Source: Acutalibacteraceae bacterium
GTDB taxonomy: Bacteria > Bacillota > Clostridia > Oscillospirales > Acutalibacteraceae
DNA: 64,000 nucleotides
Assembly (NCBI GenBank): GCA_045531855.1
Contig: JAZSEU010000030.1
Coordinates: 1,412-65,411 of the forward strand
Direction: 5' to 3'
The notes under the pieces were generated by a model, which did no database searches, was not told the DNA's origin, and saw only the letters and a program-made list of their open reading frames with translations. A program made the translations under genes and the position numbers. This document shows, piece by piece, positions 3,991 to 43,128 of this stretch (position 1 is the first letter of the stretch; each line of letters starts with the position of its first letter).

Positions 3991-4797
3991 ATGGTAAACG
4001 GAATTTTTACTATTGATGCTCATTGCCATATTTATCCCGAAAAAATCGCTTCAAGAGCGGTTGCAGGAACCGATAATTTCTATGGAGAAAACTCGGTTGG
4101 CACAGGTACAACAGAAAACCTTTTGGCTCTTGGAACTAAAGCCGGTATTGATATGTTCGTTGTTCAGTCGGTTGCAACAACACCCCATCAGGTAAAGAGC
4201 ATAAACAATTTTATATCGTCTGAGGTTGCAAAAAGTCCCGATAAGTTTATAGGTCTTGGAACGCTTCACCCTGATAGTGAGGATATTAAGGGAGATATTG
4301 AGCATCTTTTATCCTTAGGGCTTAAGGGTGTTAAGCTCCATCCCGATATTCAGGCTTTTAAGATTGATGATTACAGATGTCTTAAAATATATGAGTTATG
4401 CGAGGAAAAGGGACTTCCTGTTCTTATGCATACAGGGGATAACCGTTATGATTATTCAAATCCTAACAGACTTTTACCTGTGCTTGAGATTTATAAAAAC
4501 TTAACCGTTATTGGTGCTCACCTCGGCGGTTGGTCGATTTGGGAAGAGGCTGTAGAAGCTTATAAGGGTATTGAAAACTTTTATGTTGACTGCTCTTCAA
4601 GCTTTAATTATATTGATAAAGAAACCGCTAAGAATATAATAAGGGCTTACGGAGCGGATAAGGTGCTTTTTGGAACAGACTATCCTATGTGGTCTCCCGA
4701 AGCAGAACTTGAATATTTTTTATCCTTAGGGCTTGAAAATTGGGAAATAAATAGTATACTAAATATAAACGCTAAAAAAGTTTTTTGTTTGGAGTGA
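3991..4797 (+). CDS. Metal-dependent amidohydrolase (amidohydrolase-2 / TIM-barrel hydrolase family)
   Basis: 268-aa ORF with N-terminal DAHCHIYP (HxH) motif. It starts 2 nt after the previous stop. Confidence 0.7.
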   Translation: MVNGIFTIDAHCHIYPEKIASRAVAGTDNFYGENSVGTGTTENLLALGTKAGIDMFVVQSVATTPHQVKSINNFISSEVAKSPDKFIGLGTLHPDSEDIKGDIEHLLSLGLKGVKLHPDIQAFKIDDYRCLKIYELCEEKGLPVLMHTGDNRYDYSNPNRLLPVLEIYKNLTVIGAHLGGWSIWEEAVEAYKGIENFYVDCSSSFNYIDKETAKNIIRAYGADKVLFGTDYPMWSPEAELEYFLSLGLENWEINSILNINAKKVFCLE

Positions 4798-7220: not shown

Positions 7221-7239
7221 TGGCGGAGAGAGGGGGATT
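7221..7239. repeat. attL core (partial copy of the tRNA-Ser 3' end)
   Basis: tggcggagagagggggatt is identical to 43037-43055. Flanking sequence differs on both sides. Confidence 0.85.
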
Positions 7240-7373: not shown

Positions 7374-8492
7374 TTATATAGTGTTTAGAATTTTAATAGC
7401 TCGTTCTTCTTCGCGGGGATATAAATGCGCATAAACCTTAAGCGTTATGTTTGCGTTTGAATGGCCTAGTCTTCGAGCTATCTCCTGAATATTAATTCCC
7501 TCGTTTATAAGCAGGGTGGCGTGGGTATGCCTAAAATCATGTATTCTTATAGTTCTAAGTCCTGCTTTTTGGGAAAGTTCAATATTCTTATTGGAAAGGC
7601 TTGTATCACGAAGGGGAATTTCACCGCCGCAAACAAGCATATTTTCATTCCATTTTGAGTATTCCGTTTGTTGAATTTTCTTTTGTTCTTCAAGGATACT
7701 TTGTAAAGGCTTTGGAATTTGCAGTTTTCGTTGGCTGGAAGCGTTTTTAGGCGGAGTGAATATATTTTGCTTCCCTTTTACTTTTTGAGCAACAGAGCGG
7801 GTCACGGACAATATATCGCCCTTTATATCGCACCATCTTAGAGCGTTTATTTCCCCTTTACGCATACCTGTATAAAAAGCAATAGAAAAGAAAGTGTAAT
7901 AAGCCCAGTCTTTCGGGGATTTCAAATCTAAAAAAGAAATAAACTTTTTGTATTCTTCGGCCGTATAATACTGAATTTTTTCTTCGGGCTTATTAAAATC
8001 ATATGCATCTTTAAAATTAGGAATCCTTTGAAGAGGATTATTTGGTAGATATTCCATTCTAACCGCAAAATTCAGCATTGCTGTAAATTCTTTATAGATA
8101 TTCTTTTTAGATGTTGTCTTTAAGGTTAATTTTGCGATTTCATTTTTCCAGTTCTGAAGGATAGGAATAGTGAGTTTTGATAGCCTTACATTTGCAAGCG
8201 TTGGTAGCACATATCTTTCGAGGTTACTTTTTGTTTTTGCAAGACTGGTTTCTCTAACTTCGTTTTGTTTTGTTTCGATATACAATTCATAAAGGCCGGA
8301 TATGGTTAAAATTTTAGAAGGTTCAATATTGGTTTGGGCCTGCAATTTTGCTTCTGCTTGTTTTGCCTCGGTTGAGCCGTATACTAATTTTGATTTTTGC
8401 TTATAATTTCCGTTAGTGTCGGTGAAATTATAAGTTACCCTATATTGAGATTTTCCTTCTTTATTCTTTTTTCCTGTTTTATATATAGGCAT
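7374..8492 (-). CDS. int: Tyrosine site-specific integrase
   Basis: 372 aa. C-terminal catalytic region HDFRHTHATLLINEGINIQEIARRLGHSNANITLKVYAHLY (R..HxxR..Y pattern). Adjacent to attL. Confidence 0.92.
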   Translation of the reverse strand: MPIYKTGKKNKEGKSQYRVTYNFTDTNGNYKQKSKLVYGSTEAKQAEAKLQAQTNIEPSKILTISGLYELYIETKQNEVRETSLAKTKSNLERYVLPTLANVRLSKLTIPILQNWKNEIAKLTLKTTSKKNIYKEFTAMLNFAVRMEYLPNNPLQRIPNFKDAYDFNKPEEKIQYYTAEEYKKFISFLDLKSPKDWAYYTFFSIAFYTGMRKGEINALRWCDIKGDILSVTRSVAQKVKGKQNIFTPPKNASSQRKLQIPKPLQSILEEQKKIQQTEYSKWNENMLVCGGEIPLRDTSLSNKNIELSQKAGLRTIRIHDFRHTHATLLINEGINIQEIARRLGHSNANITLKVYAHLYPREEERAIKILNTI

Positions 8493-8510: not shown

Positions 8511-8906
8511 TTACTGTAGATAATAGTCTAAGGCTTTTTGCATAAAATCCTCGGTAACGCCGAAATGTTCGGAGAGCTCCCAGCGGTTTCGGCAATATTT
8601 ACAGGCTTCTTTTAGCTCATCCTCGGGGATGAGTTTTTTTATTGCCCATTTATTTGCTGTGTTTTCGTGTTTGGAACGAATATCAAATGGTGAATACTGA
8701 TTATAGAACGCTCCGGTTTCACAATGCCCGAGTTCATGAGCGAGTTTGACTTTTTCGTCTGATTCGTTAATTAACTTCAAAGGGTTTATAGCTATATGGC
8801 ATTGCCCATCGAGTAATAGTGAAACGCTTTCGGTTTTTTCCAAATCAAAAGAAAAAACATTAACATTATCATATTCGGCAATATCATATAGGTTGCTTAA
8901 TGTCAT
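8511..8906 (-). CDS. ImmA/IrrE family zinc metallopeptidase (candidate repressor-cleaving antirepressor)
   Basis: 131 aa with HELGH motif. It overlaps the stop of the upstream XRE repressor gene, which is the classic ImmR/ImmA arrangement. Confidence 0.8.
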   Translation of the reverse strand: MTLSNLYDIAEYDNVNVFSFDLEKTESVSLLLDGQCHIAINPLKLINESDEKVKLAHELGHCETGAFYNQYSPFDIRSKHENTANKWAIKKLIPEDELKEACKYCRNRWELSEHFGVTEDFMQKALDYYLQ

Positions 8907-9472
8907 AGGGTATCCTCTTTCTTTTTTTCTCTAATAAACTGTGCGAATTTACGAACATCTTCAAGAATATCAGGAGTGATATCCTTATTGTCTTCTCCGT
9001 AGAGCGCAAACATTAAAGCCTCGTCGTTAGTGATAACGGTGGGGTTTTCTTTATTTATAATCTGATTTATTGCATTTTTAGTTTCCGGTTTGGTTCGATA
9101 TTCCATTATCATTTTCATTTCGCGGTTTGTTGCAATAAAGGGTTCGGAATCTTTTGAAGGTAAATTGGAATCTTCCTTAAATATTAATACGGAGTTTTTA
9201 TTAGCGGAGTTGAGAACCAGGGGATTGGAATTGTCAGTTGTATTTTGCAAGGGGAAATTCATTTCATACTGTTCGTCTTCACCCATTATAAAAGATGGAT
9301 GCACTTGAAGAGCGTTAGCCAAAGAAACAATTTTATCACGGCGCATATTCGCAATGTCTCCACTTTCCCATCTTGAAACGGTAGCTTCGCTGACACCGAT
9401 TTGTTTCGCAACCTCGAGCATAGTCAATCCTAATTCTTTTCGTCTTTTCTTTAATTTTTCACATATATTCAT
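8903..9472 (-). CDS. XRE-family HTH repressor (CI-like)
   Basis: HTH LGLTMLEVAKQIGVSEATVSRWESG. Start moved to ATG 9472 (MNICEKLKK), which follows a GGAGG. Divergent from the cro-like gene. Confidence 0.85.
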   Translation of the reverse strand: MNICEKLKKRRKELGLTMLEVAKQIGVSEATVSRWESGDIANMRRDKIVSLANALQVHPSFIMGEDEQYEMNFPLQNTTDNSNPLVLNSANKNSVLIFKEDSNLPSKDSEPFIATNREMKMIMEYRTKPETKNAINQIINKENPTVITNDEALMFALYGEDNKDITPDILEDVRKFAQFIREKKKEDTL

Positions 9473-9499
9473 TCTACGCACCTCCAATATTACGATAGA

Positions 9500-9528
9500 A
9501 TTATAACACATTACTTGCAAAAAAGCAA
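9500..9528 (-). promoter_or_regulatory. Candidate sigma-A promoter for the repressor operon
   Basis: On the minus strand: TTGCTT, 17 nt, TGtTATAAT (extended -10). Palindromic operator 9513-9530 overlaps it. Confidence 0.4.
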
Positions 9529-9530
9529 GT
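9513..9530. promoter_or_regulatory. Palindromic operator-like site
   Basis: ACTTGC-aaaaaa-GCAAGT perfect inverted repeat. Confidence 0.55.
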
Positions 9531-9568
9531 GCGAAACGCTTTTTTTTGAAAAAACTTGCGAAAAGGTA

Positions 9569-9597
9569 TTGACAAAGAGGAAAAGGTGTGTTATCAT
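9569..9597 (+). promoter_or_regulatory. Candidate early rightward promoter (drives cro-like gene and the early operon)
   Basis: TTGACA (9569-9574), 17 nt, TGtTATCAT (-10 at 9592-9597). Confidence 0.6.
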
Positions 9598-9600
9598 TAA

Positions 9601-9616
9601 CTTGCGTAAACGCAAG
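9601..9616. promoter_or_regulatory. Palindromic operator-like site at the early promoter start region
   Basis: CTTGCG-taaa-CGCAAG perfect inverted repeat, 4 nt after the -10. An extra half-site CTTGCG lies at 9555-9560. Confidence 0.55.
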
Positions 9617-9639
9617 AATTATAGAAGGGAGGAAACGTA

Positions 9640-9843
9640 ATGTTTAATCAAAACATGTTAAAGGCGAAGATTATTGAAAATGGAAAATCAGTTATTGACC
9701 TATGTAATGACTTGGGTATTTGTGAAGCTACTTTTTATCGAAAGTTAGCACGAAATGGAGATTTTTCCCGTTTCGAGATTAGAAGGATAACGGAATCTTT
9801 GAATTTGAACAAGGCAGAAAGGGACAAGATTTTTTTTGCTTGA
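9640..9843 (+). CDS. Cro-like small HTH protein
   Basis: 67 aa. Segment IDLCNDLGICEATFYRKLARNG is HTH-like. GGGAGG RBS. Divergent from the repressor. Confidence 0.7.
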   Translation: MFNQNMLKAKIIENGKSVIDLCNDLGICEATFYRKLARNGDFSRFEIRRITESLNLNKAERDKIFFA

Positions 9844-9846
9844 AAA

Positions 9847-9862
9847 CTTACGGAAACGCAAG
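9847..9862. promoter_or_regulatory. Third, imperfect operator-like palindrome
   Basis: CTTACG-gaaa-CGCAAG, one mismatch relative to 9601-9616, directly after the cro-like stop codon. Confidence 0.4.
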
Positions 9863-9978
9863 AAAATTATTTTAGAAGTAATTCTTCATTTTTAAACTTA
9901 GAATTTAAAGTGCAGCTATCGTTTGGACATATTCTATCAAAAACATTGTCCAATAAAAAGGACTAAGGAGGTGAAAAT

Positions 9979-10290
9979 GTGAGGCAGGTGAATATCGCAG
10001 CAGCTCTTGAATTGTATTATGAGAGGTTAACCTTAAGTAACAAGGATATAAAAAATATATTTGGTGTTACGAGTGATAGTACTGCAAGCAAGATAAAGAA
10101 TGAAGTGATTTGTTATTTTGCTGAGTCTGATATAAATCCCATTAGCGCTCTAAACGGTAGGATTAAAACTGAATATGCTTTTGAGGCTTGGGGCATAGAT
10201 ATCAAAAATCTTGAGATGCGCTTTAGAAAATTACAAAAAATAAACGCCGCCCCCGGAAATAGCGTTCCGAAGACGGCAAAAGAAAATTAA
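9979..10290 (+). CDS. Hypothetical early protein
   Basis: 103-aa ORF with GTG start preceded by AAGGAGG. No recognisable motif. Confidence 0.5.
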   Translation: MRQVNIAAALELYYERLTLSNKDIKNIFGVTSDSTASKIKNEVICYFAESDINPISALNGRIKTEYAFEAWGIDIKNLEMRFRKLQKINAAPGNSVPKTAKEN

Positions 10291-10347
10291 CTTATTGGCA
10301 TTATACCAAAAGTATAACAAAAAGTCAAATGATAAGGAGAAAAGAAT

Positions 10348-10959
10348 ATGAGTAATTATTTAATGTTAAACGGAAAAAGGATAGATTTAACAGCTGAACA
10401 GATAGCGGATATAAAGCAAAGCTTTGGTATCGAGGATGTTAAATTATCAGATATAAAGGTTGGGGAAACTTTTAGAATCGGAGAGTATGAATTTGTTGTG
10501 TTAGAACAGTCCGGGGATACTACTGCAGTTATTCTTAAGGACTTATTGCACGAAGAAGAGATATTTGGCAGCAACAATAATTATGATGGGTCAAATGTAG
10601 ACAAGCTTTGCAATGAGTTTGGTGAAGAAATAGAAAATATAGTTGGTTCGGACAACCTTGTTGAGCATACAGTAGACCTTACAGCTGATGATGGGCTTAA
10701 ATGCTATGGAACTATCAAACGAAAGCTTTCCCTTATTACCGCCGAGCAGTATCGCAAATATGTGTACATATTGGATGAGCATAAAATCAGTTCTTGGTGG
10801 TGGCTGGCTACACCGCATAGCACAGATAAACACGAGAATGCAAGTTGGGTTAAAAGCGTTTCGCCTCTCGGCGGCATTAACAACTGCGGTTGCAACTACT
10901 ATGACTTTGGGGTTCGCCCGTTTTGTATCTTAAAATCTAATATCTTTGTATCTAAATAA
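10348..10959 (+). CDS. DGR target protein 1 (variable C-terminus; DUF6273/DUF1566-like WWWL...GVRP module)
   Basis: 203 aa, paralog of 10971-11489. The C-terminal ...SWWWLATPHS...VSPLGGINNCGCNYYDFGVRPF contains VR1. Confidence 0.85.
   Translation: MSNYLMLNGKRIDLTAEQIADIKQSFGIEDVKLSDIKVGETFRIGEYEFVVLEQSGDTTAVILKDLLHEEEIFGSNNNYDGSNVDKLCNEFGEEIENIVGSDNLVEHTVDLTADDGLKCYGTIKRKLSLITAEQYRKYVYILDEHKISSWWWLATPHSTDKHENASWVKSVSPLGGINNCGCNYYDFGVRPFCILKSNIFVSK
10856..10924 (+). repeat. DGR variable repeat VR1
   Basis: Ungapped 69-nt alignment to TR 11903-11971 with 14 differences, all at TR adenines. Confidence 0.9.
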
Positions 10960-10970
10960 GGAGAATAAAA

Positions 10971-11489
10971 ATGAAATTATCAGAAATTAAAATAGGAAAT
11001 ACTTTTAAAATTGCAGGCATTGAATTTGTAAAGCTCACAGAGGAGAACGGTGTATGTGCGGCTATATCCAAGGATATACTTTTCAATTCTAAATTTGGTA
11101 AGAATAATAACTTCGCTGAAAGCGAAATTTTAGAAAGACTTAATAATGAGGTTTTACCAAAATTAGAAGCTGAGGTAGGCCCTGAAAACATAAAGGAGTT
11201 TGAAATTGATTTAACTTCGTTAGATGGCTTAGACACATACGGCAAAATTAAATCAAAAATAGGATTGCCGACTATTGATTTCTACCGTGAAAATGTAAGA
11301 ACTTTTGATAAGTATAAACCTAATAACTGGTGGTGGTTAGCAACACCTGATACCACAAAGGAACACTTGAATGATAATTGGACAGTTTGCGTTTCGCCTC
11401 TCGGCGGCATTGGCAACCGCCATTGCATCATCAATAGCCTTGGGGTTTGCCCGTTTTTATACTTTGTATCTTTTATTTCTGTATCTTGA
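10971..11489 (+). CDS. DGR target protein 2 (paralog of target 1)
   Basis: 172 aa. ...NWWWLATPDT...VSPLGGIGNRHCIINSLGVCPF contains VR2. Confidence 0.85.
   Translation: MKLSEIKIGNTFKIAGIEFVKLTEENGVCAAISKDILFNSKFGKNNNFAESEILERLNNEVLPKLEAEVGPENIKEFEIDLTSLDGLDTYGKIKSKIGLPTIDFYRENVRTFDKYKPNNWWWLATPDTTKEHLNDNWTVCVSPLGGIGNRHCIINSLGVCPFLYFVSFISVS
11389..11457 (+). repeat. DGR variable repeat VR2
   Basis: Ungapped 69-nt alignment to the TR with 15 differences at TR adenines plus one C-to-T difference (11448). Confidence 0.9.
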
Positions 11490-11501
11490 GAGGAATAAGC
11501 T

Positions 11502-11870
11502 ATGGCCGATAATGATTTAAAAGTGATAATAAAAGCCAAAGAATTAGCGGTGCATTCTTTCAAGTTGACTTCCAATTGCAATAGATATCCTAAAAAATAT
11601 AGGCATTCGCTTGTTGACCAAATACAGCTGATAAGCTTGAAAATTCACAATAATTTATTGGAAGCGAATAGAACTAATAATGTTAGTCATTTGCGAGAAC
11701 GATGCGAAAAGATAACCAGGGCTATTACTTGTTGTGATGAGTTGCTCTTTTATATTGAATTATCTATCGAGCTTGGACTATTAGCGGATAATTCTGCAGC
11801 TTATTGGTCGAAGTTGGTATCGGATGTTAAGTATATGTCTATTGCGTGGAGAACAAAAGAAAAAAGATAA
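11502..11870 (+). CDS. avd: Avd-like accessory variability determinant (four-helix-bundle / 23S rRNA-IVS protein family)
   Basis: 122 aa. Pattern KAKELAVHSFKLT...YPKKYRHSLVDQIQLISLKIHNNLLEANR is typical of the family. It lies between the targets and the TR. Confidence 0.8.
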   Translation: MADNDLKVIIKAKELAVHSFKLTSNCNRYPKKYRHSLVDQIQLISLKIHNNLLEANRTNNVSHLRERCEKITRAITCCDELLFYIELSIELGLLADNSAAYWSKLVSDVKYMSIAWRTKEKR

Positions 11871-11902
11871 ATTTATTTAGGCTGTATGTTGTATTTTTCT
11901 AT

Positions 11903-11971
11903 GCGTTTCGCCTCACGGCAACATTAACAACAACAATTACAACAACAATAACAATGGGGTTCGCCCGTATT
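11903..11971 (+). repeat. DGR template repeat (TR)
   Basis: Noncoding. Contains 24 adenines. In the target reading frame it reads as AAC/AAT-rich codons (SPHGNINNNNYNNNNNGVRP). Confidence 0.9.
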
Positions 11972-12072
11972 GGTGGACAGCCGGTCAGAGTAGGTTCTAT
12001 ACCGAAATCAGAGCACCGCCATCAAAAGAATGTACAGCCTTTCCGTAAGGATAAACAAAGAGAGTGTGTTGT

Positions 12073-13110
12073 ATGACCGAGTTTGAGAAAGTAATCGATT
12101 TTAATAATATGTATAAAGCCTATCGAAAGGCCAAGCGTGGTAAAGGCTATAAAAAGAGTTCTGCCCAGTTTGGAATAATGGCATTAGATGGAATAAACAG
12201 GCTCATAGAACAATTAAATAACAAGACCTATAAAATATCTGATTATCAGGAGTTTAAGGTTTATGAGCCTAAGGAACGGATTATTAAAACTACCGCTTTT
12301 AAGGATAAGGTCGTGCAACACAGCTTGTGTGATAATGTGATATTACCAAGACTTAAAGAAATCTTTATATACGATAACTGCGCCGGCCAAAAAGGAAAAG
12401 GCACTCTGTTTGGTCTTAACCGCCTAAGTGAACAAATGGCAGAGTTTTATGAGAGGTATGGGACTGACGGATATATTCTTAAATGCGATATATCTAAATT
12501 CTTCTACAGCATACCTCATCAACAATTAAAAGATATCGTTAACTATTATTTTTCAGATGATAAGGATATATGTTGGCTCTGCGATTTGTTTATTGATAGC
12601 ACCGAAGGGAAAGGAATACCGTTAGGGAATCAGATTAACCAGGGCTTTGCTCTTCTTTACTTAGATGGTTTAGACAAGCTTATTAAAGGTGAATTAGGTA
12701 TTCAATATTACGGGAGATATATGGATGATTTCTATTTAATCCATCCTAGCAGGGAATATCTCAAATATTGCCTTGAAGTAATAACAGAGTTTTTAAGTAC
12801 TTTGGAGCTTTCTTTAAATGGGAAAACACAAATATTCCCTATAAAAAACGGAGTTAGTTATCTTGGATTTCATACTTATATTACTTCCGATGGGAAGATA
12901 ATACGAAAACTAAAAAATCAAAATAAAAGAAACGCTCAGCGAAAATATACAAGAATGGCAAAATTAGTAGCTTCTGATAAATTAACGAGAGATAAGTTTC
13001 AAAGCTCATATAATTCTTGGAAAAATCATATATCGCACGGTAACTGTTATAAGTTGAGTAAGGTTTCAGATAAGAAAATAAATAACATATTAAAGGAGAA
13101 AAGAATATGA
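12073..13110 (+). CDS. DGR-type reverse transcriptase
   Basis: RT motifs include YMDDFYL and LGNQINQ (DGR-type [I/L]GxxxSQ-like motif). ATG 12073 (MTEFEKV) is preferred over GTG 12064. Confidence 0.9.
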   Translation: MTEFEKVIDFNNMYKAYRKAKRGKGYKKSSAQFGIMALDGINRLIEQLNNKTYKISDYQEFKVYEPKERIIKTTAFKDKVVQHSLCDNVILPRLKEIFIYDNCAGQKGKGTLFGLNRLSEQMAEFYERYGTDGYILKCDISKFFYSIPHQQLKDIVNYYFSDDKDICWLCDLFIDSTEGKGIPLGNQINQGFALLYLDGLDKLIKGELGIQYYGRYMDDFYLIHPSREYLKYCLEVITEFLSTLELSLNGKTQIFPIKNGVSYLGFHTYITSDGKIIRKLKNQNKRNAQRKYTRMAKLVASDKLTRDKFQSSYNSWKNHISHGNCYKLSKVSDKKINNILKEKRI

Positions 13111-13358
13111 ACGGTTGTATTTACATAGATGGAATTGTAATGTGGGTGGTTGTATCAATATTAGTTTTATTGGTTGCGATTGCTCTTTTTTGTTCGATAT
13201 GCAGCATCGGGCTTCAGGATGAAAATTACATATTAAGGGACAAGCTCAGGAAGTCCGAGGAAGAGAACAAGGATTTGCGGTGTGAGCTTAGTAAAACATT
13301 ACAAAAGCTATACTCCAAGCAATATACGGACAACCTCAAGAGTTTAGAGGTGGAATAA
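13107..13358 (+). CDS. Small membrane-anchored coiled-coil protein
   Basis: 83 aa. Hydrophobic segment VMWVVVSILVLLVAIALFCSICSI. ATGA overlap with the RT stop codon. Confidence 0.55.
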   Translation: MNGCIYIDGIVMWVVVSILVLLVAIALFCSICSIGLQDENYILRDKLRKSEEENKDLRCELSKTLQKLYSKQYTDNLKSLEVE

Positions 13359-13549
13359 TGGCTGAGTGCTTAATCACAAAAAAAGCCTTACCTGAAAGAA
13401 ATGTTCATTTTATAGGGTTCGAATGCAGAAACAAGGATAGATATTGTTGTCCTAATTATAGATATAGTTTTTTAGATGGGACAAACTGTCAGTTGCTCAG
13501 AAAACCTCGTAATGTTGAAACACTTTTAAGGAGGGCGGAAAATGTATAG
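13358..13549 (+). CDS. Hypothetical small Cys-rich protein
   Basis: 63 aa, 1-nt overlap with the upstream stop. Confidence 0.45.
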   Translation: MAECLITKKALPERNVHFIGFECRNKDRYCCPNYRYSFLDGTNCQLLRKPRNVETLLRRAENV

Positions 13550-13910
13550 ATGCAATAACTGCTCTGCTGATTTTGAGGAGCCTGATGTTATCAGAGAGGA
13601 TACAAGCGAAAAATGGTTCGTATGTCCTTATTGCAGAGGAACGGACTTCGGTGAACTAAGACCAAGAAAAGAAGATGATGCCTTTTTGAAGATTAAAAAG
13701 AGCGAGGTTATAGATTTTGCGGTTGCTGCTATTGCTTTTATAAATGCAGGTGAAACAGACACTGCAAAAGAAACCCTTATTGAGCTCGTTGGAGAGATGG
13801 TGGGGTGCCATTTTGAATACAAGCAAAGCCTTGCACTTGTATCGGATAAAAAGGCAGTAGAGGAGCTCAGAGACAATATTATCACAATGTTAGAGGTGGA
13901 AGTTGTATGA
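13542..13910 (+). CDS. Hypothetical protein with N-terminal zinc-ribbon-like CxxC...CxxC
   Basis: 122 aa with CNNC...CPYC. Overlaps the upstream ORF. Confidence 0.55.
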   Translation: MYRCNNCSADFEEPDVIREDTSEKWFVCPYCRGTDFGELRPRKEDDAFLKIKKSEVIDFAVAAIAFINAGETDTAKETLIELVGEMVGCHFEYKQSLALVSDKKAVEELRDNIITMLEVEVV

Positions 13911-14003
13911 GATACGATGAGAATTTAACCTCTGCAGAAATTAGGCTTATAGAAAAGCTTAAGGATAAGAACCGAATGGAGCAAGACCAAATCATAGGAG
14001 AGT

Positions 14004-14240
14004 ATGAAAATGGCTAATTTCGAATCAGGAGTAGCTTCTTATGTTAAGACCTATGCCGTTGTTGAGGTTTATTTCCCGGTAGACGATAAAGGCAGAGCAG
14101 ATATTTCCTGTAAACGCTGTCCTTATCTCACTACAACGGGGATACAGGCTAAATGCCAGTTGAATAAAAGGGTTATAGCATTCCCGGATAGATTTGTCGG
14201 GGATTATTGTCCGCTTAATAAAATTGAAAGTGAGGAATAA
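14004..14240 (+). CDS. Hypothetical small Cys-rich protein
   Basis: 78 aa. A possible additional 36-codon ORF (13907-14017) fills the gap upstream. Confidence 0.45.
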   Translation: MKMANFESGVASYVKTYAVVEVYFPVDDKGRADISCKRCPYLTTTGIQAKCQLNKRVIAFPDRFVGDYCPLNKIESEE

Positions 14241-14241
14241 T

Positions 14242-14751
14242 ATGCAGTTTAGAGATTTAACAGCTGAGGATATTGAATGCCGAGTTGCACAATGCAATCA
14301 AATTTGGGGTGTTCAACTTTTGCTTTATAAAAACGCAAGAGTAGATATGAATATTCTTGATGAGACTGTAGGTAACGAAAATTGGCAAAATAGATTTTAT
14401 GAATGCAAAGGGAACCTATATTGTTCACTTGGAATAAATGTTAATTACGATAAACCCGAAAAAGAGCCTTTGTGGATTTGGAAGGATGATTGCGGTAGCG
14501 AGAGTAATACCGAAGCTGAAAAAGGAGAAGCCAGTGATGCTCGAAAGCGTGCTGGAGTTGCCTGGGGAATTGGCAGAGAACTTTATACTGCACCAAAATT
14601 CATTTGTTTCAAGCCTGAAGATGTTACTTGGAAAGATGGAAAATGTAAGGATACTTTTACAGTTATATCCTTAACGGTTGAAAACAAAAAAATTGTGGGT
14701 TTCCAAATTCAAAACAACAAGACAAAAAAGGGAATTAAATATGGCAAGTGA
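14242..14751 (+). CDS. Rad52/Sak-like single-strand annealing protein
   Basis: Start MQFRDLTAEDIECRV at ATG 14242 with an RBS. Motif KGEASDARKRAGVAWGIGRELY resembles the conserved Rad52-family K-x-A-x-S/T-D-A-x-K-R segment. Confidence 0.65.
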   Translation: MQFRDLTAEDIECRVAQCNQIWGVQLLLYKNARVDMNILDETVGNENWQNRFYECKGNLYCSLGINVNYDKPEKEPLWIWKDDCGSESNTEAEKGEASDARKRAGVAWGIGRELYTAPKFICFKPEDVTWKDGKCKDTFTVISLTVENKKIVGFQIQNNKTKKGIKYGK

Positions 14752-20615: not shown

Positions 20616-20969
20616 ATGGCTAATGAGCAAAATTTAATACCGGGTGGATATATTCCAACTAAAGAAGAAGCCTCGAAAGGCGGCAAGGCATCAGGTAGGA
20701 CAAGAAGGCTGCAAGGTGCTATAAAGAAAGCCCTTGAAGCTAAAGCCTCTTCAGCCGAGTTTGCGGAAATCTTTGAGCAGTTCGGTATTGAAGAACAAAA
20801 TAAAGATTATGCAATGGTAATCGCCTGTGCACTTGTCGGGAAAGCGGCGAAGGGCGATTTATCTGCTGCCGGATTTATTAGAGATACCATTGGCGAAAAG
20901 CCGAAAGAGGAAATTGACTTGAACGGAGGCGTGGTGATAGTTGATGACATCACCAATCCGATTAAGTGA
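20616..20969 (+). CDS. Terminase small subunit candidate
   Basis: Start MANEQNL at 20616 after GGAGG. 117-aa basic protein immediately upstream of terL and overlapping it. The call rests on position. Confidence 0.5.
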   Translation: MANEQNLIPGGYIPTKEEASKGGKASGRTRRLQGAIKKALEAKASSAEFAEIFEQFGIEEQNKDYAMVIACALVGKAAKGDLSAAGFIRDTIGEKPKEEIDLNGGVVIVDDITNPIK

Positions 20970-22272
20970 TATAGTCGGTGGTGGGTATGATGCTTTCTGG
21001 AACAGCCGAAAAAGATATAGAGTTTTAAAGGGTGGCAAGGGCAGTAAGAAATCAACCACCACTGCACTTAATTTGATATACCGCCTGATGAAATACCCTG
21101 AGAGTAATATTCTTGTTGTTAGAGCGGTTATGAACACTCACAGAGACTCAACCTTTGCACAACTTAAATGGGCTCAGGAAAAGCTCGGAGTTTCGCATTT
21201 ATTCAGAAACAATGTTTCACCTTTAGAAATTACTTATTTACCAACAGGACAAAAGATATTATTCAGAGGTTTTGACGATGTTTTAAAACTTGCTTCAACA
21301 ACTGTTGAAAAAGGTTATCTATGCTGGGTTTGGATAGAAGAGGCTTATGAAATCGAAAGCAAAGTTGATTTTGAAAAGCTTGACTTGTCCGTTCCGAGAG
21401 GCAACATACCCGATTATCTATTCAAGCAAACAACCCTTACCTTTAACCCATGGAGCGATAGGCATTGGCTTAAAAAGAGGTTTTTTGATGAGGAGCGCGA
21501 GGACTCCGATTCATTCTCGACTAATTATCTGATTAACGAGTTCCTCGATAAAACTGATATACAAGTCTTCGAGAGGATGAAGGATGAAAACCCGAGAAGA
21601 TATGCAGTTGCGGGACTTGGTGAATGGGGAATTGCCGAAGGGTTGGTTTTCGAGAATTGGGAAGTTAAAGAGTTTGATATAAAAGGTCTTGGAACCGAAG
21701 ACAACGCTGAATGGCAATATAAACACTTCTTTGGACTTGATTACGGGTATACGAATGACCCTACAGCTTTTGTTGCGTTTGTGGCTAACCCAATAGAAAA
21801 AACAGTTTATATTTACGATGAGCATTACGAGAGGAAAATGCTTAACACCGATATAGCCGATATGATAAAGAATAAAGGCTTTGCAAAAGAAAGGATAAGA
21901 GCCGATGCGGCCGAACCTAAATCAAACGATGATTTAAGAAGGCTTGGAATTAGCAGAATAATGCCCTCGGTTAAGGGAAGAGACAGTATCGTTAACGGGA
22001 TAGCAAAGCTTCAGGAATATAAAATCTTTGTTTTGCCTAAATGTCAGAATATGATTACTGAGTTATCAAGCTATTGCTGGAAAAAGGACAGGCAAAATGA
22101 TAACTCACTTAACGAGCCTGAGGATAGGAACAACCATTTGTGTGATGCTTTAAGGTATGCTTTTGAGGATGTTAAGTTCTTTCATCCTGAAGACCCGAAG
22201 ATTAAAAGAAGAGTATCGCCGGGAGCGAGATATAGTATTACACAAGAAGACTTCAAGGAAGGATGGGAATAG
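20944..22272 (+). CDS. terL: Terminase large subunit (PBSX/Terminase_3-like)
   Basis: Walker A-like LKGGKGSKKSTT. C-terminal nuclease region with conserved acidic residues. Size is typical. Confidence 0.88.
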   Translation: MTSPIRLSDIVGGGYDAFWNSRKRYRVLKGGKGSKKSTTTALNLIYRLMKYPESNILVVRAVMNTHRDSTFAQLKWAQEKLGVSHLFRNNVSPLEITYLPTGQKILFRGFDDVLKLASTTVEKGYLCWVWIEEAYEIESKVDFEKLDLSVPRGNIPDYLFKQTTLTFNPWSDRHWLKKRFFDEEREDSDSFSTNYLINEFLDKTDIQVFERMKDENPRRYAVAGLGEWGIAEGLVFENWEVKEFDIKGLGTEDNAEWQYKHFFGLDYGYTNDPTAFVAFVANPIEKTVYIYDEHYERKMLNTDIADMIKNKGFAKERIRADAAEPKSNDDLRRLGISRIMPSVKGRDSIVNGIAKLQEYKIFVLPKCQNMITELSSYCWKKDRQNDNSLNEPEDRNNHLCDALRYAFEDVKFFHPEDPKIKRRVSPGARYSITQEDFKEGWE

Positions 22273-23355: not shown

Positions 23356-24261
23356 ATGTCTATCAATTCTATTTCAACTGCTACAAAGTATTCGGACGCT
23401 TTGGACCAGGTATTTATGCAGAAGTCCGTAACTTCATTTTTTAAGGATAATGCACTCGGAACAAAGTTTGTAGGTGCTAAGACTGTAATGATTCCCGATG
23501 TTGATTTTGCAGGTCTTGTTGACTATGACAAAGACACAGGCTTTGCAAGAGGAACAATTACTGTTAACCATGAGTCTTACACTCTCAGTATGGACCGTGC
23601 ACGTTCAATTATGATTGACCGAGAGGATATGGATGAGACCGGTATTGCAAATCTTGCAGGTAAGGTTCTCGGCGAATATGTTAGAACTAAAGTTGTTCCC
23701 GAGTGTGATGCTTATGTTATTCATAAAATCTTCGGTTATGCTACTGCAAAGAATAACGCTGAGGTTTATGAAGCCGGCAAGGAACTTTCACAGCTTACCG
23801 CTGCGATTAACGGTGTTCGTAAAGTTGTTGGTTACGATGAGGAGCTTGTTGCTTTTGTTGAGAGCGATTTCTATGCGGCTCTTGAGAACTCTCCTGAGAT
23901 TTCTCGCCATATCACCGTTTCAGATTTTAAGAAGGGCGAAATCAACACTAAGGTTAAATATATTAACGGTGTTGCTCTCATCCCCGTTGTTCCTGAGAGA
24001 ATGAAGAGCGATTATACCTTTGTTAAGAACGGCGAGGCTGCTGAGGGCGGTTTCACTGCTACAGAAGGAGCAAAGGATATTAAGCTTATAGTTGTTCCTA
24101 AGAGCGGTGCTCACCTCGTTCAGAAGAGCGAGAAAATGAGAGTGTTTACTCCCGAGCAGAACCTTGATGCTGATGCTTATAAGTTTGATTACAGAACTTA
24201 TTACGATGTATTTGTTAAGAAGAGCGGCGAGAATGCTATTCAGGCCGTATATGCTGAATAA
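23356..24261 (+). CDS. Major capsid protein candidate
   Basis: 301 aa, strong RBS, follows the scaffold gene and is followed by a strong terminator (pattern of a highly expressed gene). Confidence 0.6.
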   Translation: MSINSISTATKYSDALDQVFMQKSVTSFFKDNALGTKFVGAKTVMIPDVDFAGLVDYDKDTGFARGTITVNHESYTLSMDRARSIMIDREDMDETGIANLAGKVLGEYVRTKVVPECDAYVIHKIFGYATAKNNAEVYEAGKELSQLTAAINGVRKVVGYDEELVAFVESDFYAALENSPEISRHITVSDFKKGEINTKVKYINGVALIPVVPERMKSDYTFVKNGEAAEGGFTATEGAKDIKLIVVPKSGAHLVQKSEKMRVFTPEQNLDADAYKFDYRTYYDVFVKKSGENAIQAVYAE

Positions 24262-24271
24262 GATAAAAAAT

Positions 24272-24306
24272 AAAAACTGCAATCTTTAAGGGGTTGCAGT
24301 TTTTTA
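24272..24306 (+). terminator. Rho-independent terminator after the capsid gene
   Basis: actgcaa (24276-24282) pairs with ttgcagt (24294-24300), flanked by an A-run and a T-run. Confidence 0.75.
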
Positions 24307-24307
24307 A

Positions 24308-24342
24308 TTTGTCCGTTTATAAGAAGTTAATCGCTCTAAAAT
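24308..24342 (+). promoter_or_regulatory. Late promoter candidate B
   Basis: TTTGTCCGTTT (24308-24318), 18 nt, TAAAAT (24337-24342). Upstream of the portal gene. Confidence 0.5.
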
Positions 24343-24374
24343 CTAATTATAAAATACCGAAAAGGAGTATACAA

Positions 24375-26216
24375 ATGAGCGATTTCAAAATAAAGACAGA
24401 GCCGAAAACTATATTTGAAGAGTTTAAAAACGGCGACAATTACAAGCAAGGAATAGGCAAAAGAGGTCTTGCTGAACAGGGAAAGGTTAACGAGAGATTT
24501 TTTATCGGCGACCAATGGCACGGTGCTAACTGCGGAACGAACAGACCGCTTGTTAGAAGAAACATTATCAAGAGAATTGGGGAGTTTAAAATGTCCTCAA
24601 TTACTGCTGCACCGATAGCAGTTAACTATACGGCGGATGGAATACCCGATATAAACCTCGAGGATGAGAAAAAGGCTTATTCTAAGGAGCTTGCTGAGGG
24701 AGCAATGATGAGCGGTGAGGTTAGCAATGCGGAAATTGCGACCATAATGCAATGCTTATCGGAATACTTCAAAATAACGGGAGAGAGACTAAAACTCGAT
24801 ATGTTGAAAGAACAGGCACTTAGAAACTGCTATATAAGCGGTACGGGGCTTTTGTATACATACTGGGACCCAAATATTAAGACGGGACTTTATGCTGATG
24901 AGGCTAAGCAAATGCCTATAAACGGAGATATAAATTGCGAGGTTTTAGAGGTTGAGAATGTTGTTTTCGGAGAGCCCAATAATGACGATATTCAAACTCA
25001 GCCCTATATTATCATTTCTCGAAGAAGACATATAGGAGAGGTTATCAGAGAGGCAAAAAGAAACGGAGTATCCGCTGAGGATATTGCCGATATCAAGCCC
25101 GACAATGTTGATTATATGCAGACCGAGGGAGAGCTTGGCGAATACGAGCCGAATGACAGCAACAGAGTTACAACTCTTACGAAGTTTTATAAGAAATGGG
25201 CTAAGGATGGAAACAGTTTCAAAATTTTCTGCACTGAGGTTGCGGAAAAGGTTGTTATAAGAAAGCCTTTTGATATCGGAATTACTCATTATCCTTTTGC
25301 AATAATGCCTTGGGAACGCCGCCGCTCTTGTATTTACGGTGAGAGTGAGGTTACTCATTTGGTACCGAATCAGATAGCAATAAACCGCTGTCTTACTGCG
25401 GCAGTTTGGGGAATTATCTCAACGGGAATGCCGATAATGATTGTTAACGGTGATGTTGTAACCGAAAGAATTACTAATGAACCCGGTCAAGTTATAAAGG
25501 TTTATGGAAGCAATGAGGATGTTGCAGGTGCTATAAGACATATTCAACCGCCTGTGTTCCAAAGCCAATACTTCCAGAGTGTTAACGAGATGGCGAGCAA
25601 TACCCTTAACGATTCAGGAGCAAATGATGCGGCACTCGGAAATCTAAGACCCGACAATGCTTCAGCCATAATCCAGATGAGAGAAGCCGCTATGCAACCA
25701 ATGCAGATTTATATGAACCGCTTTTATGATTTCATAGAACAGCTTGCGAGAATTTGGGCGGACTTTTGGATAAATCTTTATGGAAAGAGAATGCTCCAAA
25801 CCGTTACAAAAGAGGGAACTAATTATATACATTTTGATGGCGAGAGATATAAAAATCTTGTTATAACCGCAAGAATAGACGTTGGTGCTTCAACCCTTTG
25901 GAGCGAGGCGGTTGTTATCTCTACTCTTGATAATCTGCTTGAGAGACAAATGATAACCTTTGAGCAGTATCTTGACCGACTTCCCTCAGGAATTATTCCC
26001 GATGTTACAGGGCTTAAGGAAGACCTGCAGTTGCAGAGTCAACAGGCAGAACAAGAGGCGGGCCTTTCTGATGAAGCGGTGCTGAGAGACTTTGCACAGC
26101 AGCAACCCGAACTCTATAAACAGTTTGAGAGAATGCCTGCTTCTCAGCAGATGGCATTGATGGCAAAAATAAAAGGAGCTTATAACGGCGGTGAAGCTCA
26201 GGAGGTAATAGAATGA
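24375..26216 (+). CDS. Portal protein candidate
   Basis: Start MSDFKIKTEP at ATG 24375 after AAAGGAG. 613 aa. Size and acidic C-terminus fit a portal. No other portal-sized candidate lies near terL. Confidence 0.55.
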   Translation: MSDFKIKTEPKTIFEEFKNGDNYKQGIGKRGLAEQGKVNERFFIGDQWHGANCGTNRPLVRRNIIKRIGEFKMSSITAAPIAVNYTADGIPDINLEDEKKAYSKELAEGAMMSGEVSNAEIATIMQCLSEYFKITGERLKLDMLKEQALRNCYISGTGLLYTYWDPNIKTGLYADEAKQMPINGDINCEVLEVENVVFGEPNNDDIQTQPYIIISRRRHIGEVIREAKRNGVSAEDIADIKPDNVDYMQTEGELGEYEPNDSNRVTTLTKFYKKWAKDGNSFKIFCTEVAEKVVIRKPFDIGITHYPFAIMPWERRRSCIYGESEVTHLVPNQIAINRCLTAAVWGIISTGMPIMIVNGDVVTERITNEPGQVIKVYGSNEDVAGAIRHIQPPVFQSQYFQSVNEMASNTLNDSGANDAALGNLRPDNASAIIQMREAAMQPMQIYMNRFYDFIEQLARIWADFWINLYGKRMLQTVTKEGTNYIHFDGERYKNLVITARIDVGASTLWSEAVVISTLDNLLERQMITFEQYLDRLPSGIIPDVTGLKEDLQLQSQQAEQEAGLSDEAVLRDFAQQQPELYKQFERMPASQQMALMAKIKGAYNGGEAQEVIE

Positions 26217-28797: not shown

Positions 28798-29819
28798 TGG
28801 CAACTAAACCAAGAGATTGGAATGTCATACATTCTGAAATTGAAAATTCACTTGCTGCTCAAAAGCAGGCGGATAAGGATGCACAAAATAAAATATTTGA
28901 TACAAATAAAAAGACCATAACCGATAATTATACGCAGTCAATAAAAGATGGTGAGGCTGAGTATGAGGACGATTATAGAGAAAACGCTGTTCAGAAAAAG
29001 GTTAACGAGTTTTACATATCCGAAGAGATGGCTAATATGGGGCTTGCTAATTCGGGGTTCAATCGCACACAAATTACGGCAAATCAGTTATCCTATGCCA
29101 ATAATAAGGCGGAAATCGACAGGAAGAGACAGAGTATGGTTGATAGTCTCAAAATAGAAATGACTAATAAGCTTACCGAAAACGAAAACGAAAGAACAGG
29201 TGCTTTAGCAGGTATTGATTCGAGTTACAAGCAAACTGCAATCGAAAAAACAAATGAGATTTATGGAGATGAGTGGGATGCTTATAATAAAGAACGAGAA
29301 GCGGAAATTAAAGCTGAAACGGAGAGGCAGAAGGCGTATTACAGTGCCTTGGAAAAACAAGCAGAAGCAGCAAAAAACGCCAAGCCCCAAAATATTATAA
29401 ACAGCAAGGAAGGGTTTTTAAATCGTGAGGCTATGAAGGAGGGCGGCTTTACTGCAAACAACATCAAAGTTAAAGAAAACGGAAATGGAACAGTAACTTA
29501 TTTTGATATAGATACAGGGTATTCTTCTACATTTGCGAAAAATGAAAATCCGTTTACTGGACGTGCGCATAAAAACGCCCAATATGGAACATTCGATAAC
29601 GGGTATCAGCCAAACAACATGGGTAAAGATGAAAGCGGAAAAATATTAAAGTTAAGAGCTGCAAAGAGAGTTGATACAGGCGAAACTGCAACACTTCCTA
29701 AAAATGGACAGCAACAAACAGTATGGACCGTTGATGGCAAAACATTCTATCTTTGGAATGGAGCTATCAACGATTATGAAAAATTAAACCCCAACAAAGC
29801 AAAAGGAGTGTTCAAGTAG
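28797..29819 (+). CDS. Virion-associated coiled-coil protein
   Basis: 340 aa. The central region is charged and helical. Confidence 0.45.
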   Translation: MATKPRDWNVIHSEIENSLAAQKQADKDAQNKIFDTNKKTITDNYTQSIKDGEAEYEDDYRENAVQKKVNEFYISEEMANMGLANSGFNRTQITANQLSYANNKAEIDRKRQSMVDSLKIEMTNKLTENENERTGALAGIDSSYKQTAIEKTNEIYGDEWDAYNKEREAEIKAETERQKAYYSALEKQAEAAKNAKPQNIINSKEGFLNREAMKEGGFTANNIKVKENGNGTVTYFDIDTGYSSTFAKNENPFTGRAHKNAQYGTFDNGYQPNNMGKDESGKILKLRAAKRVDTGETATLPKNGQQQTVWTVDGKTFYLWNGAINDYEKLNPNKAKGVFK

Positions 29820-38160: not shown

Positions 38161-39348
38161 ATGGCTGTAAGAGAGTTTACATATACGGTTGGAAAAAATG
38201 ACATTGCCGCCGCTAACATACCTCAAGCGGGAGTACAGGGTGAGCATAATGCGACAAAGGTTATTTTTAAAATTGCTGAGGATTTAAAAACAGAGCTTTC
38301 AAGTTTATCGGGGGATGGCAAGACATTTTGTTATCACTTTGACAGATATGATGGAACAGGAGGAAAGAACTCAACAGAGCCTATAAGGTTTAATCCTGAT
38401 ATAGATACGGAGTTTTCTCATTTGATAGAGCAATGGCAGACAAGATACGGTGGAGCTATACAGGTATTTTTTGTTATAACGCTTATTGAAAATGATAAAA
38501 CCGAATTGGAGCTCTATTCATACTGCGTTAAAATGCAGCTTAAATCTTTGCCTGAAGCAGCAGAAGTTGATGAGGAAAACTATGATACCATAGTTACTCT
38601 TGCTATGGTTGCTAAAAAGCATTCTGAGATAGCGACAAATGCTGCTATAGATGCGACAAATGCTGCACAAAGAACAGAACTTGCAAAAGCTGAACTTCAA
38701 GGCGGTTCGGAATGGGTATTCGATGGTGGAAGTGCCTCAGATGCTATAGGAATAGATTTTGTTGTTGATTCGGAGGTTATAAATGATAGTGATAACCCTG
38801 TAAAGAGCAAGGCAATAAAAGCCTATGTTGACGAGAAAACAAATGCTTTGGCAGCAGAAAATGAAGAACAGGAAAAAGTAATAAATGAAAATGCAACGGT
38901 ACTCGGTAAGATGGTCGATTATATTGTTGAACAGGATACCGTTGGAAATTGGACATATCGGAAATGGAATAGCGGAGTAGCTGAATGCTGGTGTGTTATA
39001 CCTACCACAATAAATGAGCTTGTGAGGGGTGATGACTATCATTTCTTTCAAGCAATATCCGACTATAAATTTCCAGAGGTCAATGGACAACCTTTGTTTA
39101 TAGCTGTCCCTAAACTTGATGTTGATATAGGAAATGCACCGACAACGGGTCTTGGCCAAGGAATTCTTTATTCATTACGAGGATATCAAACTATAACGAA
39201 CACAGGAACTTTATATGTTGCAGGAACATCAAAATATATTGATGGTTTCGAATTATCCTATACAAGAGAAGATGGTTTGAAGGTATATAAATTAGAAAAA
39301 GGAATGAAAGTAATTATAAGTATTGCCGCAAAGGGTATTTGGAAATAA
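38161..39348 (+). CDS. Tail fibre/receptor-binding module protein candidate
   Basis: 395 aa, precedes the collagen-like fibre gene. The N-terminus loosely resembles BppU-type N-domains. Confidence 0.45.
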   Translation: MAVREFTYTVGKNDIAAANIPQAGVQGEHNATKVIFKIAEDLKTELSSLSGDGKTFCYHFDRYDGTGGKNSTEPIRFNPDIDTEFSHLIEQWQTRYGGAIQVFFVITLIENDKTELELYSYCVKMQLKSLPEAAEVDEENYDTIVTLAMVAKKHSEIATNAAIDATNAAQRTELAKAELQGGSEWVFDGGSASDAIGIDFVVDSEVINDSDNPVKSKAIKAYVDEKTNALAAENEEQEKVINENATVLGKMVDYIVEQDTVGNWTYRKWNSGVAECWCVIPTTINELVRGDDYHFFQAISDYKFPEVNGQPLFIAVPKLDVDIGNAPTTGLGQGILYSLRGYQTITNTGTLYVAGTSKYIDGFELSYTREDGLKVYKLEKGMKVIISIAAKGIWK

Positions 39349-39360
39349 GGAGGGAGAATA

Positions 39361-43036: not shown

Positions 43037-43055
43037 TGGCGGAGAGAGGGGGATT
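43037..43055. repeat. attR core (3' end of the intact tRNA-Ser)
   Basis: Identical to 7221-7239. Confidence 0.85.
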
Positions 43056-43128
43056 CGAACCCCCGAAGTGGTATTAGCACTTACACGATTTCCAGTCGTG
43101 CGCCTTAGACCAGCTCAGCCATCTCTCC
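43037..43128 (-). tRNA. tRNA-Ser (anticodon GGA), CCA encoded
   Basis: Minus strand reads GGAGAGA...CACGA-CTGGAAA-TCGTG...long variable arm...GGGGGTTCGAATCCCCC-TCTCTCC-G-CCA. Confidence 0.9.

Follow-up and report, generated by a model that had tools for sequence, protein, structure and literature searches.

We describe here a diversity-generating retroelement (DGR) in a prophage of an Acutalibacteraceae bacterium (GenBank assembly GCA_045531855.1, contig JAZSEU010000030.1). The DNA analyzed, called the window below, is 64,000 nucleotides (nt) long and contains a 35.8-kb prophage integrated in tRNA-Ser. A complete DGR occupies positions 10348-13110 and comprises two tandem target genes, a gene for the accessory protein Avd, a template repeat (TR) of about 70 nt, and a reverse transcriptase (RT) gene; these and the other prophage features are listed in Table 1. 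This DGR differs from those described so far in being dedicated entirely to small early-region proteins without an anchor domain, an arrangement that is a common, conserved, and widespread but little-noticed variant. A preliminary description of the window, made from its sequence alone, had pointed to such targets and suggested a role for them in the lysogen or in early infection, not in adsorption.

The retroelement and its two targets

Pooled over the two variable repeats (VRs), 29 of 30 mismatches to the TR lie at template adenines. Read in the frame of the targets, the TR encodes V-S-P-H-G-N-I-N-N-N-N-Y-N-N-N-N-N-G-V-R-P-Y, and 14 codons are diversified: ten AAY codons plus CAC, ATT, TAC, and TAT. 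Since an AAY codon can reach 15 amino acids and never a stop, the computed repertoire is ~15^10 x 4^4, or ~1.5e14 variants per target. Further VRs were sought by scanning the window with the TR in which every adenine was replaced by N. This pattern matched only the TR, VR1, and VR2 in 64 kb (0 matches expected by chance), so there is no third VR and none in the fiber genes at 38161-40665, as the preliminary description had stated.

The remaining parts of the element were assigned with Pfam, NCBIfam, PADLOC, and Rfam. Avd exceeds the cut-off of NCBIfam TIGR02436 (25.2 bits; cut-off, 24); its matches to bAvd and DivGenRetAVD (E 4e-7) are below cut-off. The RT scores under the curated NCBIfam cut-offs of group II intron, retron, and Drt RT families, and PADLOC returns only generic RT matches for it. 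A sub-threshold match to the Rfam RT-2 RNA begins directly 3′ of the TR and extends into the start of the RT gene, the site expected for a DGR RNA spacer. An open reading frame (ORF) spanning the TR (11846-12076) was rejected as a gene, being the TR read in another frame. Positions 10348-13110 form a self-contained, active DGR.

Comparison with relatives points to past mutagenic homing. A sister prophage (L173) has an identical TR over the 72 nt compared, and both of its VRs differ from those of the window, at adenine sites; because the TR is kept and both VRs differ at adenines, the DGR has evidently been active. The early regions of the two prophages are 93-97% identical, and their lysogeny modules differ. 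The mosaic junction lies at 10324 of the window (7640 of L173), where homology starts 24 nt before the ATG of target 1; the lysogeny modules upstream are unrelated. Across 110 related cassettes, 1,977 of 2,029 TR/VR mismatches (97%) fall on TR adenines. In an alignment of 97 target homologs, column entropy reaches ~3 bits at residues 174, 176, 178-181, and 183-187, is lower at the single-adenine codons 177 and 182, and is zero at G175, whose codon has no adenine; peak variability thus coincides with the AAY-coded residues within 174-187.

The two targets are paralogs with 45% identity over 173 amino acids (aa; E 2e-46), in line with the tandem paralogy described earlier, and both contain the previously noted motifs WWWLATP ... 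VSPLGG ... GV(R/C)PF. Both pass the gathering score of Pfam DUF6273 (PF19789; 23.5 bits), narrowly (Table 1), and this assignment, proposed before, is further backed by Foldseek matches to DUF6273 phage proteins and to the IgA peptidase 9qa6. Profiles of DUF1566, FGE-sulfatase, and Mtd_N gave no match to the targets at E up to 0.1. FGE-sulfatase, which had been proposed for a profile search, thus found no counterpart in sequence, and the suggested resemblance to DUF1566 stood at the level of fold but not of sequence, through the C-terminal domain of Legionella Lcl, the second Foldseek match of the 203-aa protein only (E 8e-3).

AlphaFold2 models each target as one single C-type-lectin-like domain, with a predicted local distance difference test (pLDDT) score of 91.2 for target 1 and 97.0 for target 2. 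The extra 30 N-terminal residues of target 1 are modeled as a beta-hairpin plus a helix. In the model, the VR-coded residues map to a hairpin of strands 177-181 and 187-189; the same VR hairpin is described for related proteins by Baykov et al. (PMC10743442), who state that the VR residues are surface exposed in related models. The best solved-structure match of both targets is Thomasclavelia ramosa IgA peptidase 9qa6 (E 5e-5 and 1e-4), whose N-terminal domain is annotated as DUF6273 (PMC12402451). CD23 and surfactant-protein lectins, including surfactant protein A, come next for both with E above 0.1 and are therefore only fold-level hints. Among predicted viral structures, the best matches are DUF6273 proteins of gut phages (E 1e-9). 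Models and Foldseek thus agree on the C-type-lectin-like fold with the VR at its C-terminal end that had been anticipated. No Mtd structure is among the top 50 Foldseek matches of the targets, and as single domains of 172-203 aa without an Mtd_N match, encoded in the early operon, they are not Mtd-like, as had been argued.

Neither target has a signal peptide, lipobox, transmembrane (TM) segment, or N-terminal hydrophobic segment, so a hydropathy scan agrees with the earlier statement that export signals are absent. Kyte-Doolittle hydropathy over 19 residues peaks at 0.86 in the 203-aa protein and at 1.86 in the 172-aa protein, in the second case within a C-terminal stretch modeled as beta-strands. 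Both proteins are acidic. They contain no Ig or Fn3 domain, for which their length leaves no space. PADLOC, which covers antiphage defense, and NCBIfam gave no match for the targets or the flanking small ORFs, and PADLOC gave none for Avd; a profile search of PDB sequences returned only a chance match, longer homologs screened for domain fusions showed nothing beyond DUF6273, and an exact look-up of the 172-aa target returned no contig on record. The target family has 2,420 matches in a 90%-clustered database (1,036 clusters at 50% identity), most of them single domains of ~170-210 aa, from Oscillospiraceae, Acutalibacteraceae, Faecousia, and related Clostridia of human and ruminant guts. The targets are therefore predicted to be small, soluble, single-domain DUF6273 proteins with a C-type-lectin fold.

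Early placement in this prophage and in related phages

The first target begins 505 bp after the end of the Cro-like gene (9843), close to the distance of about 500 bp given before, and the cassette lies 830 bp downstream of the cI/Cro switch. Downstream on the same strand follow small ORFs and genes for an Erf-like annealing protein, NinB, SSB, a DnaD-like loader, RusA, a DNA methyltransferase, and an HNH nuclease, which bears out the placement of the targets in a plus-strand early block with annealing, SSB, and replication genes. Between cro and the cassette, orf103 has no match in Pfam, PHROG, PADLOC, or NCBIfam.

Within 9300-14300, the plus-strand site closest to the promoter consensus is the PR-like promoter upstream of cro. 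From there to the targets, no plus-strand terminator is predicted, and no convincing promoter specific to the targets was found. A 16-bp palindrome lies between this promoter and cro; with up to 3 mismatches it occurs 5 times in the window, versus 0.5 expected by chance. Its copies bracket cro, the one at 9847-9862 lying just 3′ of the gene over a weak promoter-like site. The palindromes are putative operators, and if they are operators, the cassette would be repressor controlled and transcribed with the early lytic genes. It appears to be transcribed from the PR-like promoter within the early lytic operon. On the minus strand, 10235-10328 holds a strong promoter-like site (TTGACT, 17 nt, TATAAT, with TG) and, within ~20 nt of it, a terminator-like hairpin with a 14-bp stem and a T-run; this site could yield a ~60-nt antisense RNA to the 3′ end of orf103, just upstream of target 1.

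To see how general this placement is, viral contigs and species-representative genomes were searched, and 160 related loci were collected. Of these, 111 have the same module, in which one or two DUF6273 genes precede Avd and RT, with two adjacent targets in 99 and one in 12. Sixty-eight loci had at least 5 kb of DNA on each side and gave 61 nonredundant flanking contexts, in which neighboring genes were labeled with profiles built iteratively from Pfam-annotated seeds over 10 kb, tail modules lying mostly beyond. TerL, portal, or major head genes were upstream of the cassette in 0 of 61 contexts and downstream in 23. An integrase, recombinase, ImmA, or minus-strand helix-turn-helix (HTH) gene was upstream in 54, and replication or recombination genes followed on the same strand in 47; an HTH regulator was the nearest labeled upstream marker in 32, and a DNA methyltransferase lay within 6 kb in 18. 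Nearly all labeled downstream genes (109/114) were codirectional with the cassette. Pfam-based gene tables show the same layout in four different backbones: one phage has a serine recombinase, DnaB, ParA, and ParB, two have a tyrosine integrase and a cI-S24 repressor, and one carries PemK. The site within the early arm varies, from directly after cro, as in the window, to after the replication genes, just before the terminase. Early placement of the cassette is thus conserved and general, and the vicinity of lysogeny switches, for which a survey had been proposed, is not unique to this prophage. The rule is well tested only for the cassette-bearing group plus the phages Brigit, Toutatis, and nd4, because DGR-less distant relatives are mostly on backbones that the marker panel does not label.

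Two products of this survey were discarded. A strand-only metric (nearest upstream minus-strand ORF from a greedy ORF caller) suffered from spurious antisense ORFs and was replaced by the hidden Markov model markers. An apparent position of a target next to a capsid gene in two IMG/VR contigs, L184 (4132-4790) and L185, was rejected; both are deletion derivatives in which the first ~35 codons of a target 1 homolog are fused to the middle of a scaffold gene beside the capsid gene and the remaining early region and terminase are missing.

Three phages bear on whether the early position belongs to the target gene or to the retroelement. In the Faecalibacterium phage FP_Brigit, the gene order is integrase, HTH, HTH, regulator, gp06 (203 aa, a DUF6273 homolog), exonuclease, and RecT, and Avd, TR, RT, and the Hoc-like target gp60 are 41 kb from gp06, after the tail fiber gene. 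The FP_Brigit TR differs from gp60 at 11 positions, 10 of them adenines, and from the 3′ end of gp06 at nine, 7 of them adenines and the other two at the 3′ edge of the repeat. The original FP_Brigit description named only the Hoc-like target (PMC5883640). In Toutatisvirus, the second VR gene is reported as a core gene 17.5 kb upstream of the TR (bioRxiv 10.1101/2024.10.15.618418), and in the Toutatis record the small target is among early genes, upstream of a replication initiator and a Q-like antiterminator. In nd4, tgt2 is located between lysis and replication genes. The small gene stays by the switch though the DGR is late, and an insertion preference of a mobile cassette therefore cannot explain the early position, which, by this comparison of gene orders, belongs to the target gene and not to the retroelement.

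The cassette itself is an accessory, dispensable four-gene module that moves between phage backbones; in the genomes compared, its site in the temperate phage is always within the rightward early or replication region. In nine phages with related Erf/NinB/SSB modules, the stretch upstream of Erf (up to 8 kb, shorter where the contig is short) contains neither a target nor Avd nor RT, and in one of these phages cI is directly followed by Erf. Relatives found through the major capsid protein had too little upstream sequence for cassette presence to be scored. Between SSB and RecT, tandem DUF6273 pairs that are nearly identical to one another are found in some loci together with Avd and RT and in others alone (L048-L051, L056, L057, L059, L076, and L077 compared with L052, L060, and L064). 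The target pair thus persists at its site through gain or loss of the DGR.

The rest of the prophage is summarized in Table 1. Its attR copy is the 3′ end of the tRNA-Ser gene at 43037-43128. An endolysin is encoded, and large virion proteins are encoded beyond the portal. In the virion module, a 2,623-aa ORF (29819-37690) with LPD23 and SprT-like domains resembles a "polyvalent protein"; neither PHROG nor NCBIfam gave a match for it. The annotated prophage ORFs include no tape-measure or tail-tube gene, and the particle is therefore probably short-tailed. The fiber genes reported earlier were upheld by their profile matches; the ORF at 39361-40665 combines collagen repeats with Mtd_N (26.7 bits; cut-off, 26.3) and carries no VR. 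The small membrane protein gene that follows the RT is not kept beside other cassettes, and the neighbors differ in L005, L008, and L168.

Table 1. Features of the prophage and its DGR (window positions), with the separate repeats of FP_Brigit
Feature	Position	Strand	Evidence or remarks
attL and attR	7221-7239; 43037-43055		19-bp direct repeat TGGCGGAGAGAGGGGGATT; longest exact repeat common to both prophage ends
Tyrosine integrase	7374-8492	minus	Pfam Phage_integrase E 1e-20, plus SAM-like N-terminal domain
ImmA/IrrE-type metallopeptidase	8511-8906	minus	Pfam Peptidase_M78 E 1e-7
cI-like HTH repressor	8903-9520	minus	Pfam HTH_3 E 5e-14
PR-like promoter, putative	9569-9597	plus	TTGACA, 17 nt, TATCAT, extended TG; consensus match only, 11/12 positions
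Operator-like palindrome	9601-9616		Perfect 16 bp, CTTGCGTAAACGCAAG; between PR-like promoter and cro; weaker copies at 9514-9529 and 9847-9862
Cro-like small HTH protein	9640-9843	plus	Weak HTH Pfam matches; position divergent from cI
orf103	9979-10290	plus	Between cro and cassette
DGR target 1	10348-10959	plus	203 aa; DUF6273 C-type-lectin-like domain plus 30-aa N-terminal extension; Pfam 26.4 bits
VR1	10856-10924	plus	3′ end of target 1; 14/14 mismatches to TR at TR adenines
DGR target 2	10971-11489	plus	172 aa; DUF6273 domain only; Pfam 23.6 bits
VR2	11389-11457	plus	3′ end of target 2; 15/16 mismatches to TR at TR adenines
Avd accessory protein	11502-11870	plus	Four-helix bundle; Pfam 23S_rRNA_IVP 34.0 bits (cut-off 33.8)
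TR	11903-11971	plus	Between Avd and RT; 24 A in 69-nt core
Candidate DGR RNA spacer	11976-12117	plus	Sub-threshold Rfam RT-2 RNA match, 23.3 bits (gathering score 40), E 0.027
DGR RT	12064-13110	plus	Pfam RVT_1 E 9e-15; YMDD read from translation; 93 nt 3′ of TR
Small membrane protein	13107-13358	plus	83 aa; N-terminal TM helix, coiled-coil tail; start overlaps RT stop; maximum 19-residue hydropathy 3.18
TerL	20941-22272
Major head protein	23356-24261
Portal	24294-26216
Fiber genes	38161-39348; 39361-40665		PHROG tail-fiber matches; Pfam Collagen and Mtd_N
FP_Brigit remote VR	FP_Brigit record 4373-4452		L002 3948-4559; TR from ~45399 (L174 32400-32800)

Comparison with known systems

The preliminary description knew of no described function for this arrangement; close parallels have nonetheless been published. 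The small targets nd4_tgt2 and nd12_tgt2 (PMC10743442), those of Lelie and CP11 (PMC11792537), and Toutatisvirus gp24 (bioRxiv 10.1101/2024.10.15.618418), which date from 2023-24, are likewise DUF6273-only DGR targets, each with one C-type-lectin-like domain and a C-terminal VR forming a beta-hairpin. They belong to temperate phages of gut Oscillospiraceae, are 27-32% identical to the targets of the window (tblastn), and are located among early or replication genes. There, however, the DGR has a large Ig-domain "tentaclin" as its first target and the small protein, often encoded far from the RT, as its second. The DGR of the window has no structural target; its two targets are both small, and the genes for these paralogs stand in tandem directly 5′ of Avd-TR-RT. 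In the available text of these three reports, the function of the small targets is called unclear or supposed to be receptor binding, and their early position draws no comment.

Tentaclins such as FP_Brigit gp60 and that of Mushuvirus have the same DUF6273 lectin head and style of VR as the window targets. They add Ig-like domains, including a presumed C-terminal anchoring domain, and their genes are in the late region beside tail and lysis genes. The window targets, with a DUF6273 head and no Ig-like domains, fall outside the tentaclin definition given in PMC10743442.

The DGR of Bordetella phage BPP-1 shares with that of the window the Avd-TR-RT machinery, adenine-specific mutagenesis, an AAY-rich TR, and a VR toward the C-terminal end of a C-type-lectin fold. 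Its target Mtd is a 381-aa protein whose N-terminal beta-prism and beta-sandwich dock on tail fibers and whose gene is in the tail module (PMC10743442), whereas the window targets are single domains of 172-203 aa in the early operon, and the only Mtd_N domain of the window sits in an undiversified fiber.

Roux et al. separate structural from nonstructural viral DGR targets (PMC8144416), and nonstructural or counterdefense-linked phage targets were reported in 2021 and 2025. ORF84 of Quimbyviridae is a nonstructural, second DGR target in a defense-related island (PMC8008677), and methyltransferases neighbor a distal second VR in four gut prophages (PMC12629997). Like the window targets, these are hypervariable C-type-lectin proteins outside the structural module, beside genes of counterdefense type. 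The Bacteroidota phages concerned differ in host phylum and target family, and they keep a tail or structural target, the nonstructural VR being a remote second site, whereas in the window the entire DGR is devoted to nonstructural targets.

Possible roles of the targets

We tentatively favor the view that the targets are early-made, soluble, nonvirion hypervariable binders that serve in conflict between phage and host or between phages. In this scheme, the RT, aided by Avd, would copy TR RNA into cDNA, misreading adenines, and the mutated cDNA would replace the 3′ ends of the two target genes. Made early after induction or infection, the targets would remain in the cytoplasm, outside the virion, and bind a fast-changing partner, for example a host defense protein or a component of a rival phage, instead of acting as an adsorption device. 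A role in the lysogen or in early infection, as opposed to adsorption, is suggested by gene position and sequence motifs, and the timing of expression, the action in the cytoplasm, and the kind of ligand are inferred; the analysis itself establishes the DGR anatomy, the adenine-specific diversification, the fold, the lack of export signals, and the conserved early placement. The phage of the window has fibers of its own, one with Mtd_N but without a VR, so the targets are probably not its primary receptor-binding protein. Action in the lysogen, the other half of the earlier suggestion, looks less likely because the genes are in lytic orientation and lie behind operator-like sites.

Several points weigh against this view. 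The targets match no defense or anti-defense family in PADLOC. DUF6273 is extracellular elsewhere: it occurs in the Hoc-like tentaclins, for which virion attachment is predicted (PMC10743442), and as the N-terminal domain of an IgA peptidase that is secreted and probably anchored by sortase (PMC12402451). Published work takes small DUF6273 proteins as receptor-binding proteins. A single TR acts on both a predicted virion-exposed protein and a small protein in Brigit, Toutatis, and nd4, which hints that the two bind the same class of ligand. The promoter and operators proposed here are consensus matches only, and gene position is a prior, not proof, as early transcripts can persist into late infection.

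The chief rival holds that the targets are accessory virion adhesins or receptor-binding tips that dock noncovalently on fibers or capsid, as Mtd does on BPP-1 fibers, and that the early site only marks a place open to a mobile cassette. A signal peptide is absent from Mtd, too. Virion-associated tentaclins have DUF6273 as their binding head, and so do larger proteins that carry receptor-binding or tail annotations (PMC10743442; PMC11792537). The Brigit TR diversifies both the Hoc-like and the small protein, the conserved N-terminal hairpin plus helix of target 1 could be a docking element, and a fiber of the window bears Mtd_N. Against this, the targets have no Ig-like, beta-prism, or other anchoring domain, target 2 being a bare lectin domain, and in the 61 contexts, over the 10 kb covered, the survey found no packaging or head gene upstream of the cassette, the tail modules themselves mostly lying farther out. 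Tolerance of a mobile cassette accounts poorly for the site, since the small gene stays by the switch when the DGR is in the late region, which rules out cassette insertion bias; phages with related early modules also exist without the cassette. We consider the adhesin explanation doubtful, although it is the strongest of the alternatives.

It is improbable that the targets are lysogenic-conversion factors, expressed from the prophage and reaching the outside without a signal peptide, through vesicles or lysis of a subpopulation, to supply the host population with a variable lectin. There is a precedent, as a 2026 preprint (10.64898/2026.05.08.723808) reports transcription and translation in lysogens, and occurrence in extracellular vesicles, for a DUF6273 tentaclin diversified by the DGR of a Mushuvirus prophage, and cellular DUF6273 proteins are surface proteins. 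The genes in the window, however, are downstream of cro in the lytic direction, behind operator-like sites, with no convincing promoter of their own and no export signal in their products, and they are not at the usual moron sites, namely, the integrase-repressor interval or the prophage ends. Superinfection exclusion at the cell envelope, in which the targets would mask receptors or keep DNA from entering, is highly improbable: the genes are near the immunity region, and changing rival phages could in principle be tracked by a hypervariable binder, but the targets lack a TM segment, lipobox, signal peptide, and PADLOC match and are in lytic orientation, and the Gram-positive exclusion proteins known to us are membrane anchored or lipoproteins and are expressed in lysogens.

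A broader form of the preferred reading, on which early nonvirion binders act in conflict, is speculative and in our estimation unlikely to hold. It would have temperate phages of gut Clostridia devote a DGR wholly to nonvirion proteins, an intracellular, antibody-like repertoire of early lectin-fold binders diversified across the phage population to neutralize variable host defense proteins or rival phages; in lineages like those of Brigit and Toutatis, that TR would act on a virion adhesin as well.

The usual explanation of phage DGRs is tropism switching through tail proteins. Here, an abundant type of cassette, with 111 examples in prophages of gut and rumen Clostridia, diversifies only small, anchorless proteins of the early operon. 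The question is directly testable, as inducible Faecalibacterium prophages with such genes (Lelie and relatives of Brigit and Toutatis) are in culture. If the targets are nonvirion proteins, the published assumption that small DUF6273 targets bind receptors would need revision, and targeted hypermutation in phages would also serve an intracellular or early-infection function.

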